This document shows, piece after piece, positions 2,417-62,225 of a stretch of 64,000 nucleotides of DNA; within the stretch, counting starts at the first letter, position 1, and each line of letters begins with the position of its first letter. A program made the translations under genes and the position numbers. Below the pieces are notes generated by a model. The model saw only the letters and a program-made list of their open reading frames with translations, did no database searches and was not told where the DNA came from. The stretch is from Candidatus Nomurabacteria bacterium (lineage in GTDB: Bacteria > Patescibacteriota > Minisyncoccia > Phycocordibacterales > UBA9973), in NCBI GenBank assembly GCA_026396015.1, contig JAPLXP010000004.1, positions 1,546 through 65,545 on the forward strand. The letters are read 5' to 3'.

Positions 2417-4591
2417 ATGGAATACAAGGAACCAAATATTGATAAAAAACTATTACAACCATATAATCCTGCGGAAACAGAGGATCGTATTTACAAGCAA
2501 TGGGAAGAAAGCGGATTCTTCAATCCTGATGTATGTATTGAAAAGGGTGCGACATCTCCTGATGCAAAACATTTCTCTATTATTATGCCCCCACCAAATG
2601 CAAATGGGCGTCTTCATGCTGGCCATAGTCTCGTGATGACACTACAAGACATCATGACTCGCTACCACAGAATGAAAGGTGAAAAGACTCTCTGGGTACC
2701 TGGAGCAGATCATGCTGGATTTGAGACTCAAATAGTATACGAGAGAAAACTAGAAAAAGAAGGCCGTTCACGATTTGACATGAAGCCAGAGGATCTCTAC
2801 AAAGAAATTTATGACTTTACAATTGAAAGTAAAAAATTCATGGAAGCTGACGTGCGTCGCATTGGTGCCTCTTGCGATTGGTCACGTGAAAAATTCACGC
2901 TCGATCCTAGTGTTGTAAAAACGGTACAACAAACTTTTGACAAAATGTTCAAAGACGATTTGATCTACCGAGGTGATCGTATTGTAAACTGGTGCGCAAA
3001 GCATCAGACTTCCCTTTCTGACCTAGAAACAGAATTTAAAGAAAAAGCTGATAAATTTTATTATTTCAAATATGGACCTTTTACAATAGGTACAGCTCGC
3101 CCTGAGACAAAGTTTGGAGATAAATATGTCGTTATGCATCCAGATGATAAAAGGTACGCAGAATACGAGCACGGAGATAAATTCATAGCTGAGTGGATCA
3201 ATGGACCGATAGAGGCGACTATAATAAAGGACGATAGTATCGATATGGAATTCGGAACAGGTGTGATGACTATAACACCATGGCACTCAAATGTTGACTT
3301 TGATATCGCAGAAAAATACAAATTAGACAAGGAGCAGATTATAGACTGGAAAGGAAAACTCATGCCAATAGCTGGCGAGTTTGAAGGTCAGCATATATCC
3401 AAAGCACGCGCTCAAATAGTAGAGAAATTAAAAGAAAAAGGACTACTTGTAAAAGTTGATGATGAGTACAAACACAATGTAAAGGTATGCTACAAATGTG
3501 AGACAGTCATAGAACCACAAATAAAAGACCAGTGGTTCGTAAAAATGGCACCACTTGCAAAAAGAGCACTGGAGGTAGTAGAAGCTGGAAAAATAAAATT
3601 CTACCCAAGTAACTATGAAAAGATTTTCAAATACTGGATGGAAAATACAATAGACTGGAATATTTCAAGACAAATCATCTGGGGAATTCCAATTCCTGCA
3701 AAGATTTGTGAAAAGTGCAAGAAGGGTTATTCTGATCTTGAAGATGAACTTACTACTTGTGATTGTGGTGGTAATCTACAAAAAGATACAGATACTTTTG
3801 ATACATGGTTCTCATCAGGACAGTGGACACTGCTCGCACTAGGATACCCAGATTTGAAGGATGTAAATATTTATCACCCAACTAGTGTGATGGAGACTGG
3901 TGCTGATCTAATTTTCAAATGGATTCCTCGAATGGTTATTTTTGCGCTTTATCTAAAAGATGAAATTGCTTTTCAAGATGTATACCTAAACGGAATGGTA
4001 AATGATGAAAAGAATCAAAAAATGAGCAAATCAAAAGGCAACGTAATCAGTCCGGTTGATTTGATAGATATTTACGGAGCAGATGCCCTACGTATGGCAT
4101 TGATAGTTGGCAACACACCAGGGACTGACATCGCACTATCAAAAGATAAAATCAAAGCATATAAACACTTTGCAAATAAGCTCTGGAACATCGCACGCTT
4201 TACCCTATCAGCAACAGAAGGTATCGTATGTGATCCAACATTCAATGAATACACAGACAGTGAAAAATCTTTAATTGAGGAAAGAGATAATTTAATTTCT
4301 GAAATTACAAAGGAAATGGATGAATACAAATTCTATCTAGTCGGAGAAAAGCTCTACGCATACGCATGGACACGATTCGCTGATGTGATAATCGAAGAGA
4401 GTAAATCAATACTAAATGGCGAGGATGTGAATGCAAAAATGGCTCGTGCACAATTCCTACTGAATACTCTTGAAAAGATTACGACAGTACTACACCCATT
4501 CATGCCATTCGTCACAGAAGAATTATGGTCCATTATTCATAAAGACACAGGCCTACTAATGGTAGAAAAATGGCCAAAAATAAATAACTAA
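2417..4591 (+). CDS. valS: valyl-tRNA synthetase (short form lacking C-terminal coiled-coil)
   Basis: Class I HIGH motif (PPPNANGRLHAGHSL), WVPGADHAGFETQ, and KMSKSKGN. LeuS lies elsewhere in the window, so this is ValRS-like. It is 724 aa. Confidence 0.8.
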   Translation: MEYKEPNIDKKLLQPYNPAETEDRIYKQWEESGFFNPDVCIEKGATSPDAKHFSIIMPPPNANGRLHAGHSLVMTLQDIMTRYHRMKGEKTLWVPGADHAGFETQIVYERKLEKEGRSRFDMKPEDLYKEIYDFTIESKKFMEADVRRIGASCDWSREKFTLDPSVVKTVQQTFDKMFKDDLIYRGDRIVNWCAKHQTSLSDLETEFKEKADKFYYFKYGPFTIGTARPETKFGDKYVVMHPDDKRYAEYEHGDKFIAEWINGPIEATIIKDDSIDMEFGTGVMTITPWHSNVDFDIAEKYKLDKEQIIDWKGKLMPIAGEFEGQHISKARAQIVEKLKEKGLLVKVDDEYKHNVKVCYKCETVIEPQIKDQWFVKMAPLAKRALEVVEAGKIKFYPSNYEKIFKYWMENTIDWNISRQIIWGIPIPAKICEKCKKGYSDLEDELTTCDCGGNLQKDTDTFDTWFSSGQWTLLALGYPDLKDVNIYHPTSVMETGADLIFKWIPRMVIFALYLKDEIAFQDVYLNGMVNDEKNQKMSKSKGNVISPVDLIDIYGADALRMALIVGNTPGTDIALSKDKIKAYKHFANKLWNIARFTLSATEGIVCDPTFNEYTDSEKSLIEERDNLISEITKEMDEYKFYLVGEKLYAYAWTRFADVIIEESKSILNGEDVNAKMARAQFLLNTLEKITTVLHPFMPFVTEELWSIIHKDTGLLMVEKWPKINN

Positions 4592-5954: not shown

Positions 5955-6027
5955 GCCTAGATAGCTCAGTTGGTAGAGCGCTCCCCTGAAGAGGGATAGG
6001 TCCCCAGTTCAAATCTGGGTCTAGGCA
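5955..6027 (+). tRNA. tRNA-Phe (GAA)
   Basis: Manual cloverleaf: acceptor GCCTAGA/TCTAGGC, D-arm GCTC..GAGC, anticodon loop CTGAAGA, T-arm CCCAG TTCAAAT CTGGG. No CCA is encoded. Confidence 0.9.
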
Positions 6028-6097
6028 CAAAAGTATTACATAGCATCTATAAAGTTGGAATCATTTTAATCTGAGTCTAGGAACCAATAAACAGAAA

Positions 6098-6421: not shown

Positions 6422-6460
6422 TATTTTTTAATTATACCAAATATAAAAATAAAAACGAGT

Positions 6461-6588
6461 GTGCCCTCAGCGGGAATATCGAAACTTACAGTTTCAGTAC
6501 ACCGTTTCCATTCGCGAGTACGCTCATATGGAAAAGGTCTTCGATTCCCGCACGCAATCAAAGCAGTTTGATTGCTTTCGGGCACAAA
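6461..6588 (-). other. tRNA-Arg 'echo' structured element (tRNA-like, non-canonical)
   Basis: Read in tRNA sense, it has a GCAATCAAA-CUGC-UUUGAUUGC hairpin. It also has GGGAATCGAA, which is antisense to the T-arm, and a TTTTCCAT...ATGGAAA hairpin. It ends with TTTCGATATTCCCGCTGAGGGCAC, a near-copy of the 3' end of the adjacent tRNA-Arg. Confidence 0.5.
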
Positions 6589-6622
6589 TTAAAAAATCCC
6601 CCTAAGGAGATTTTTTAATTTG

Positions 6623-6694
6623 TGCCCTCAGCGGGAATCGAACCTACATCTATCCCTTAGGACGGGACTGTTCTATCCATTGAACTATGAGGGC
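6623..6694 (-). tRNA. tRNA-Arg (CCU)
   Basis: Reverse complement is GCCCTCA..GTCCC GTCCTAA GGGAT..TTCGATT..TGAGGGCA. The acceptor has 7 bp and the anticodon is CCT. There is one A:C mismatch in the T-stem. Confidence 0.75.
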
Positions 6695-6746
6695 ATAAAA
6701 GCGCCTATATAGGCGCCTTTATAATACTATAGAAAGAATATTTTTA

Positions 6747-53716: not shown

Positions 53717-53789
53717 TGGACCGTACAGGACTCGAACCTGCCACCCCGTCATTGCAAATGACGTGCTCTACCAGATGAGCTAACGGCCC
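53717..53789 (-). tRNA. tRNA-Cys (GCA)
   Basis: Reverse complement is GGGCCGT TA GCTC ATCTGGTA GAGC A CGTCA TTTGCAA TGACG ..GCAGG TTCGAGT CCTGT ACGGTCC A. Confidence 0.85.
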
Positions 53790-53970
53790 AAACTAAACAT
53801 TTACTTAAACCAATTGACTTATCTATTGCCATGCATCGCGCTACAGATGAGCTAACGGCCCATGAATATCGAGTAAAAACTCAATAGACTATATATTACC
53901 TTATTTAATAATTTTTGCAACTATTTAGGCAAAAAAATAAGAGCTGCCAAATAATGACAGCTCATAATGA

Positions 53971-62007: not shown

Positions 62008-62225
62008 AATTCAAATTCTCCTTACAGGAGCAGTATACCTTTTGGGTATTTTTTATTCTTCATAAAATACCCAAAAGGTCTTGCGCTTTGGGTCCCTCTC
62101 CCAAAGCTCACCCGCCAACATTCTATGTGGGGGTGTATCAATATTAAACTATTTGTAGTATAGCATTTATTGAAAATTTGACAAACACTGATATTCTTAG
62201 TATATTTTTACAAATCCCAAATAAA

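Follow-up and report, generated by a model that had tools for sequence, protein, structure and literature searches.

Why should the end of a tRNA gene be followed closely by both an inverted and a direct copy of itself? The question is raised by the tRNA-Arg(CCU) locus of a Candidatus Nomurabacteria genome (assembly GCA_026396015.1), of which a stretch of 64,000 nucleotides, here called the window (contig JAPLXP010000004.1, positions 1,546 to 65,545), was analysed. A sequence-only reading of this DNA had described a palindromic echo of the tRNA 3' end beside the gene and had assigned it, together with similar elements at tRNA-Trp and tRNA-Leu, to a family with one copy per cognate tRNA. Our analysis indicates that the echo belongs to a real and widespread class of elements, apparently undescribed (the literature searched yielded no description of the family), whose members are each tailored to the tRNA behind which they lie. 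We tentatively regard these units as non-autonomous, target-templated insertion elements that act as folded single-stranded DNA.

The Arg element and the plan of a unit

Members of the family are multi-hairpin, non-coding units of about 110–170 nt. Their predicted plan, read along the tRNA strand, consists of a terminator hairpin, an antisense guide split by a hairpin (P2), two scaffold hairpins (P4 and P5) and, at the far end, a direct copy of the tRNA end. The guide is the reverse complement of the last 22–25 nt of the host tRNA, from the T loop to the discriminator and the following CA. The Arg locus comprises the following parts:

6623–6694, minus strand: tRNA-Arg(CCU) gene (ARAGORN, 6622–6694; Rfam, 6623–6694, 58.8 bits)
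6587–6622, minus strand: trailer (CAAATT) and intrinsic-terminator hairpin, with an A-run, a GGGGGA/TCTCC stem and a T-run
6580–6586, minus strand: guide part 1, the 5' arm of P1, TGTGCCC, reverse complement of acceptor end, discriminator and CA
6554–6575, minus strand: P2, hairpin of 9 bp capped by a CTGC loop, placed exactly where the acceptor and T-stem parts of the guide meet
6540–6551, minus strand: guide part 2, GCGGGAATCGAA, perfect reverse complement of T loop and T-stem 3' strand
6501–6538, minus strand: P4 hairpin, with a CTTTTC../..GAAAAG-like base and an inner GAGCG-TACT-CGCGA flanked by G-A
6495–6503, minus strand: conserved single-stranded motif GGTGTACTG, between P4 and P5
6482–6494, minus strand: P5 hairpin AAACT-GTA-AGTTT, with a 5-bp stem and a GTA triloop
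6460–6484, minus strand: distal direct copy of the tRNA-Arg 3' end, with T loop (2-nt insertion), T-stem 3' strand, acceptor 3' strand, discriminator and CA

The tRNA does not encode CCA; its discriminator A is followed by CA, and its T stem, GTAGG/CCCGC, contains an A-C mismatch. The reported direct repeat of its 3' end is borne out, with 6460–6477 identical to 6621–6638 over 18 nt at a distance of 161 nt, and extends to about 25 nt when a 2-nt insertion is allowed (GGGAATATCGAAA versus GGGAATCGAAC). The segment that had been read as a sense T-arm, TTCGATTCCCGC at 6540–6551, is a perfect 12-nt inverted repeat of 6631–6642. An inverted repeat around the terminator also exists as described, with arms of 22 nt rather than 11 (6580–6601 and 6606–6627, 95% complementary), and a terminator-like site is called on the tRNA-Arg strand at 6610–6598. 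ARAGORN and Rfam call no tRNA gene, intron-containing or otherwise, in 6461–6588, and nothing of any kind in 6460–6590, even at E <= 10. The element (132 nt) folds beyond its shuffles on both strands (z = -6.1 on the tRNA strand, -6.3 on the opposite strand), and a motif derived from three units, CTGC-N15-GAWTCGRA-N3-CTTTTC, occurs four times in the window against 0.10 expected; judged by the z-scores and the motif excess, the echo is more than a product of chance.

P2 always splits the guide exactly at the junction of T stem and acceptor, and guide part 1 can pair either with the tRNA end or with the distal copy. In cases with a terminator between tRNA and unit, the tRNA end, the terminator and the first guide segment form one long palindrome. 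At the Arg locus the terminator hairpin is the tip of the 22-nt-arm palindrome, which takes in the last 7 nt of the tRNA; in 53 other units the arms are up to 30 nt long and most often reach exactly 9 nt into the tRNA call. A full distal copy including discriminator and CA (at least 14/17 identity) is kept in about half of the units. The DNA past the Arg distal copy is the flank found directly behind the tRNA in a relative with an empty site (L129, below). Only spurious short open reading frames (ORFs), no integrase and no cargo are contained in the approximately 140 nt between the Arg repeats, and among Rfam 15 families, which include group I introns, ribozymes, T-box and tmRNA, only tRNAs and one cobalamin riboswitch elsewhere were matched at the gathering score in the window and 19 related loci.

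Four full units are present in the window: the Arg unit, two Trp units and one Leu unit. They are homologous by alignment, and a covariance model (R1) built from 87 units recovers all of them at 78–89 bits, in agreement with the proposal that the Arg, Trp and Leu elements form one family.

34511–34635, minus strand: Trp unit 1, directly 3' of tRNA-Trp (34666–34736) and its terminator
32615–32741, minus strand: Trp unit 2, the fourth motif match; an orphan that lacks an intact upstream tRNA and shares about 96% identity with unit 1
36404–36513, plus strand: Leu unit, 3' of tRNA-Leu(CAA) (36291–36373) and its terminator, lacking P5

The notion of one copy per cognate tRNA, by contrast, has to be abandoned: tRNA-Trp has two units in the window, the second lying 1.9 kb from the gene, tandem arrays are present in relatives, and for tRNA-Phe and tRNA-Ala no more than relic duplications remain. 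Some duplication of an end is found at all five tRNA genes of the window. Between the two Trp units, P1 shows a compensatory change from C-G to T-A, which indicates that pairing between guide and distal copy is itself maintained. A search for an empty site of the orphan Trp unit, made via Ham1 homologues, found none, the nearest relatives being 72–76% identical and not syntenic. The left flank of the orphan (32742–32830) retains only ..CCCGCAG of the target, followed by a hairpin, and could be a decayed tRNA-Trp or a pseudo-target.

Spread of the family, fit to the tRNA and empty sites

Scanning one genome per prokaryotic species with the motif returned at least 118 loci; the relatives were examined as 8-kb loci (L numbers) and the genome of origin as 64 kb. 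Among the matches listed plus the window, at least 92 pattern-defined units have a formed P2. Almost all P2-bearing matches listed carry the label of Saccharibacteria, Paceibacteria/Parcubacteria lineages, Minisyncoccia or the "Patescibacteria group". The two exceptions are contigs of metagenome-assembled genomes (MAGs) labelled Elusimicrobiaceae (L028, 16 kb) and Bacteroides (L079, 4.8 kb), the latter of which may be mis-binned. The remaining listed matches, in other phyla, lack P2 and are chance matches, as are all 10 pattern matches in viral contigs (IMG/VR), likewise without P2, so that the family is absent from that collection. Apart from the two oddly labelled contigs, the family thus appears to be specific to Patescibacteria. 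Motif scan and R1 together revealed more than 100 units beyond those of the window. With R1, 100 matches were obtained in the first 100 loci, and 67 of the 109 tRNA genes there (about 60%, in a sample biased to unit-holding loci) have a unit on the same strand within 120 nt downstream.

Of the 92 listed units, at least 63 lie directly 3' of a tRNA gene on the same strand, with 27 anticodons represented and 13–68 nt between the tRNA end and the CTGC loop of P2. The antisense 12-mer matches the adjacent tRNA perfectly in 55 of these 63 listed cases and at 11 of 12 positions in the other eight. Since T loops differ little from tRNA to tRNA, a separate score was computed for the 15 guide positions that do vary, which cover the acceptor 3' strand, the T-stem 3' strand, the discriminator and two nucleotides of the trailer. 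Against the unit's own tRNA they match at 13.1 of 15 on average, perfectly in 23 of 63 units, compared with 8.0 of 15, and a maximum of 13, against tRNAs of other identity. Each unit is tailored to its tRNA.

Two allelic details were recorded beside this result. The tRNA-Trp of the window has the T loop TCCGATT (C55), shared with L138, L139 and L140, versus TTCGATT in L136 and L137, and the guide of the window's Trp unit fits the C55 form. In tRNA-Arg(CCU), both T-stem alleles contain a mismatch.

The hairpin structure is conserved. In 87 units P2 is 99.4% paired and all nine pairs have changed on both sides; its covariation score is 0.51 versus 0.15 in shuffles, with none of 500 shuffles reaching 0.51. 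The first variable pair of P4 also covaries. Loops are conserved as well, namely CTGC in P2, GTA in P5 (47 of 66 units) and TACT, together with a T that bulges from the base of P4 and with the GTRTACTG and TACCYG motifs, and this conservation of loops implies that a single-stranded form matters. An excess of G·U over A·C was used as a marker of the transcribed strand:

P2: Watson-Crick 767, G·T 7, A·C 3
P5: Watson-Crick 347, G·T 10, A·C 19
tRNA-end/terminator palindrome: Watson-Crick 833, G·T 26, A·C 18
guide with distal copy (P1/P3): Watson-Crick 464, G·T 18, A·C 15
tRNA acceptor and T stems at the same loci: Watson-Crick 1417, G·U 62, A·C 7

No such asymmetry is found in any helix of the units. 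Their pairing is kept in such a way that G·T counts as a mismatch, without strand preference, and the statistics favour folded single-stranded DNA, or a function on both strands, over an RNA made from the tRNA strand.

Some scaffold modules recur between units. A Ser unit (L021) and a Glu unit (L056) of the same MAG (JAIOQC) have identical P2 stems (GCACGACAT/ATGTCGTGC) and different P4 modules, and a handful of such modules turn up again in other genomes and behind other types of tRNA; together, shared stems and recurring modules suggest module shuffling.

At three loci the units are patchily present among relatives sampled from the same metagenomes. The order at the Arg locus is Grx, tRNA-Arg, 100-aa ORF. 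The sequence-only reading had held that a plain intergenic region in close relatives would speak against it; this is in part the case, since a bare tRNA-Arg is found in the very close relative L129 (ORF 97% identical to that of the window), where the tRNA is followed at once by CACTCGTTTTT.., the window's flank behind the distal copy, whereas L130, L134 and L135 (65–73% identity) hold the window's Arg unit, with indels inside the distal copy. A different element occupies the locus in L131–L133. Filled Arg alleles share the T stem GTAGG/CCCGC, versus CCCCG/CGGAG in empty and other alleles, so that gain or loss of the unit went along with replacement of the tRNA T arm.

The Trp and Leu loci flank alr. 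Behind tRNA-Trp the window and L138 are filled and L137 and L139 are empty, the ATG of the next ORF lying 1–3 nt from the ..CCCGCA end of the repeat; in L136 the gene is inverted and the site empty, and L140 has two tandem units, one with a "family B" scaffold followed by a family-A unit. Behind tRNA-Leu, units are found in the window, L136 and L137, and L139 has a hybrid A/B unit plus a "5'-type" unit in the tRNA leader. In L140 a free-standing LAGLIDADG homing-endonuclease ORF (2781–3464) stands directly behind tRNA-Leu(CAA), where relatives hold a unit. The empty sites of L129, L137 and L139 all end at the discriminator plus CA and run into the flank found behind the distal copy in filled alleles. 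In L039, L073 and L140 units form head-to-tail arrays, each beginning right behind the previous target copy, and orphan units retain a 6–8-nt match to the target end just left of the first hairpin. By these comparisons the units behave like insertions that have clean empty alleles in close relatives and stack head-to-tail.

Relatives also differ in gene orientation and in the type of unit. Compared with the window and other relatives, tRNA-Trp in L136 (5759–5830) and tRNA-Leu in L138 (3503–3585) lie in reverse orientation to the neighbouring genes; tRNA loci that hold such elements seem liable to rearrange. Family B (L132, 2830–2965; L140, 5185–5330; L141, 5865–5960; also L037, L083 and L102) is found at the same place behind tRNAs, shares the terminator/antisense/sense plan and combines with family A in hybrids and tandems; its scaffold reads ..AGCCGGA..GAGGCGGGGTCGCGAGA..TTGTGACC, then GAA-[AGYGTACTCRCGG]-T and the copy of the tRNA end. 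The 5'-type units lie in the tRNA-Leu leader, downstream of the promoter (reverse complement of L139 2925–3500, plus strand about 3320–3425; L138 3395–3500), in the order direct copy of tRNA nt 1–10, CTGC-loop hairpin, second hairpin, inverted copy, 35-nt spacer, tRNA. Only the spacer-like part of such a unit is left in the tRNA-Leu leader of the window.

What the units may be

Presence/absence polymorphism and DNA-like mismatch statistics together point to an insertion element rather than to a device of the precursor RNA. We therefore favour, with a probability of about 0.4, non-autonomous, target-templated insertion elements acting as folded single-stranded DNA. Such elements would spread at the DNA level, folded as single strands. 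The internal guide would pair with a target, either a tRNA end or the copy that ends an earlier unit, and set the insertion point 3' of it, which would spare the tRNA while the left end of the element brings a terminator. Because the right end reproduces the target, precise excision would be possible and further units could land behind the first. Homologous recombination through the tRNA probably also carries units between lineages, a contribution suggested by the co-replacement of the Arg T arm.

Several observations weigh against this explanation. No transposase, integrase or HUH gene lies next to any unit, and a Pfam scan of about a dozen window ORFs, including the neighbours of units, found no transposase. 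No autonomous or cargo-bearing version was encountered, and a second copy of the tRNA end, sought several kilobases downstream, appeared only in tandem units. The left and right hairpins are unalike, which is not the case for IS200/IS605 ends. At orthologous loci units persist through long divergence, and within one genome the scaffolds behind different tRNAs have diverged, so that movement must be rare or the elements are kept for a function. These points are the reason why the probability is set no higher. In addition, the Arg T-arm swap fits allelic recombination and not simple insertion 3' of an unchanged tRNA; decaying copies add symmetric noise, which could partly lie behind the strand-symmetric mismatch counts; and in the apical loops of the terminators there is a bias of RNA type (8 GNRA/UNCG loops on the tRNA strand, 1 on the other), as is expected for a real tRNA terminator.

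The main rival is a cis-acting RNA device in the tRNA trailer, a reading that we consider rather doubtful. The antisense segment would capture the T loop and acceptor 3' strand of a read-through transcript, and the distal copy would release the antisense or pair with the 5' acceptor strand, giving a switch for 3' maturation, for quality control or for decay of such transcripts, or for insulation of downstream genes. The check proposed in the sequence-only reading, folding of a precursor that extends through the echo, gave the pairing it had anticipated: in the modelled read-through RNA the antisense segment binds the T loop together with the 3' strand of the acceptor, and the tRNA 5' acceptor strand pairs with the distal copy, the 242-nt Arg precursor having a minimum free energy of -111 kcal/mol (z = -10). 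That the minimum-energy fold forms exactly these pairings argues for an RNA role, as do the constant location of units on the tRNA strand, the 5'-type unit within a transcribed leader downstream of its promoter, the bias of the terminator loops and the covarying conserved structure. A terminator nevertheless separates tRNA from unit, with no room for a promoter of the unit's own; the helices are without the G·U-over-A·C excess that marks the tRNA stems at these loci; in close relatives the same tRNA has no unit; and tandem arrays and orphan units are hard to account for.

The other candidates each explain the whole set of observations less well. DNA-like pairing statistics would also suit a host function at the DNA level, with stable hairpins or cruciforms behind the very strongly transcribed tRNA genes serving as transcription or replication barriers, as priming sites, or as a gene-conversion template for a single-copy tRNA end; the units are long retained (the window, L130, L134 and L135 share one Arg unit), and conversion would be possible between the three tRNA-end copies, which alternate in orientation. 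This is improbable in view of their dispensability in close relatives and the lack of a known precedent, and it leaves conserved loops, modular scaffolds and tandem stacking without explanation. Decidedly improbable is descent as inert scars of tRNA-targeting integrative elements, attL/attR remnants of islands or prophages whose interior was deleted. Foreign DNA bounded by direct repeats of a tRNA 3' part is the hallmark of integrase insertion (PMC9897764), the Arg T arm was replaced along with the insertion, and the LAGLIDADG ORF of L140 sits at the same position behind tRNA-Leu. Scars, however, would share neither a covarying scaffold phylum-wide across 27 anticodon types nor a perfect antisense copy, there is no integrase or cargo between the repeats, and the family is absent from the viral contig collection. 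Very improbable indeed are tRNA-like decoy RNAs, in which P1 and P3 would mimic the cognate acceptor/T-stem minihelix, with P2 replacing the D and anticodon arms, as bait for tRNA-end enzymes or toxins. The P1-P2-P3 topology does correspond to acceptor, central arm and T stem, and in the 5'-type unit a copy of the whole acceptor stem forms the closing helix; against this, pairing engages both discriminator and trailer and closes the T loop into a helix, tRNA models give the unit no score, the helices have DNA-like mismatch statistics and there is no promoter.

Among the remaining candidates, a conventional, permuted or intron-containing tRNA was rejected for lack of an ARAGORN or Rfam call, and an origin from phage attP for the negative viral contig scan. 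A hammerhead-like reading of CUGA...CGAAA has an incomplete core and is absent from type-b units, and a K-turn reading of the GA-flanked TACT hairpin is off consensus. The group I introns of Patescibacteria tRNAs sit in the anticodon loop (PMC13011429), a position unrelated to that of the units, and no intron model matches.

None of the known systems checked fits as a family, and the closest working analogue is provided by guide-directed single-strand transposon ends. At the ends of IS200/IS605 elements a 4-nt guide beside a hairpin pairs with the cleavage or target site (PMC3201880), longer guide pairing raised specificity in experiment (PMC5934647), and miniature IS200/IS605 derivatives without transposase, the PATEs, exist (PMC5027513). 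The units resemble IS200/IS605, IS608 and PATEs in their hairpin-rich ends and, putatively, in the action of these ends as single-stranded DNA and in strand- and orientation-specific insertion 3' of a guide-paired target; their right end would finish in a cleavage-site sequence, as in IS200/IS605, and they share with IS200/IS605 and PATEs precise empty sites and the lack of a conventional short target duplication. They differ in a hairpin-split guide of about 22–25 nt (4 nt in IS608), in a right end that reproduces the whole target, in having a tRNA target of their own for each unit, and in lacking similar subterminal palindromes, the variable left terminator, P2 (CTGC) and P5 (GTA) being dissimilar. 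Moreover, no TnpA (Y1/HUH) gene is linked to the units, judged from the 64-kb window and the 8-kb loci.

Islands, prophages and integrative and conjugative elements that target tRNAs are bounded by attL/attR partial tRNA duplications (PMC9897764; Williams 2002, cited there). The units share with such integrative elements the tRNA 3' site, a tRNA-end repeat on both sides, a tRNA left functional and tandem accretion. They are unlike them in having about 130 nt between the repeats, without integrase or cargo, no distant second copy in the loci, and an internal inverted copy of the target with a conserved covarying scaffold. Folded attachment sites offer another comparison. In CTX-phage attP(+) and integron attC, two inverted copies of the site fold into a duplex that mimics the double-stranded target, with extrahelical bases and branches providing strand choice. 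The order of the units, target, short hairpin, inverted target, scaffold and target, is as expected from CTX-like integration of a folded att site; in the predicted fold, guide and target copy form a duplex from which P2 branches off, and a bulged T is conserved in P4. Unlike attC and CTX, the units target a tRNA end and not dif or attI, have no R/L box consensus and carry no cargo.

Repetitive extragenic palindromes (REP) and REPINs are mobilised by RAYT (TnpA-REP) (PMC8266576). They too are short non-coding palindromic elements with many copies per genome, intergenic positions after genes and long vertical persistence, and by analogy the units would be mobilised in trans by a single-copy HUH enzyme. 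REPs, however, share one sequence per genome and a GTAG head, with no tailoring to neighbours and no target copy, whereas stems differ between units of one genome and their arms are tRNA-specific. With the H/ACA pocket and the T-box the likeness is one of topology only, two guide segments around a hairpin pairing with one continuous target strand, together with tRNA-specific recognition by pairing. To our knowledge bacteria lack H/ACA ribonucleoproteins. There is no Rfam T-box match, the unit stands 3' of a tRNA and not before an aminoacyl-tRNA synthetase gene, and its target region is buried in the folded tRNA.

A more far-reaching form of the insertion-element explanation, which we think unlikely, is that the units are self-guided: a DNA guide of about 22 nt within a miniature single-stranded element, re-templated for each of 20 or more tRNA species, would read the end of a tRNA gene or of an earlier unit and direct a putative Patescibacteria enzyme to precise insertion and excision. 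If true, this would constitute programmable, protein-light DNA targeting distinct from CRISPR, TnpB/IscB omega-RNA and IS110 bridge RNA.

Genomes of Patescibacteria are roughly 1 Mb in size with little spare DNA, and yet about 60% of the tRNA genes in the (biased) sampled loci have one or more units. If the units are mobile, the choice of insertion site by long base pairing is built into the element, and insertion is self-healing since the element reproduces its target; a new enzyme and a new principle of programmable insertion could follow from this. Should they turn out to be RNA devices, they would represent the first case in bacteria of tRNA-specific antisense modules governing tRNA 3' ends. 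Either way they are an annotation issue, as tRNA fragments, long palindromes and assembly or binning hazards in MAGs, and they mark rearrangement hot spots, with inverted tRNA genes and swapped T arms in close relatives.

Relics and neighbouring features in the window

Besides the four full units, the window contains three partial features:

62017–62122, minus strand: scaffold-only relic with a P2-like hairpin, P4, GTATACTG and P5 (25 bits, E = 5e-5)
6068–6087, plus strand: decayed echo of the tRNA-Phe 3' end, 17/20 (85%) versus 6012–6031, 56 nt downstream
53844–53862, minus strand: perfect 19-nt copy of the tRNA-Ala 5' end, versus 53772–53790, 72 nt upstream of the gene

The scaffold-only relic has neither a T-arm guide nor a distal copy and lies between a sigma-70-like promoter and the uvrA start codon, hence in the would-be uvrA leader. 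The echo of tRNA-Phe (5955–6028) stands just ahead of a terminator that this gene and the convergent 100-aa ORF have in common, and it probably remains from a unit that has since been lost. The tRNA-Ala copy consists of one leader nucleotide plus nt 1–18, with no inverted copy in between, and resembles the 5'-type units in the tRNA-Leu leaders of relatives. The genes downstream of the window's units (the 100-aa ORF, an ART-like ORF, a 271-aa ORF and uvrA) are unrelated to the amino-acid-related genes that follow T-box leaders. On the other side of the Arg locus, a palindrome with 14-bp arms (AAAAGCGCCTAT/ATAGGCGCCTTT, 6695–6722) abuts the 5' end of tRNA-Arg; it is kept in all relatives and is probably the terminator of the glutaredoxin gene, placed directly against the tRNA.

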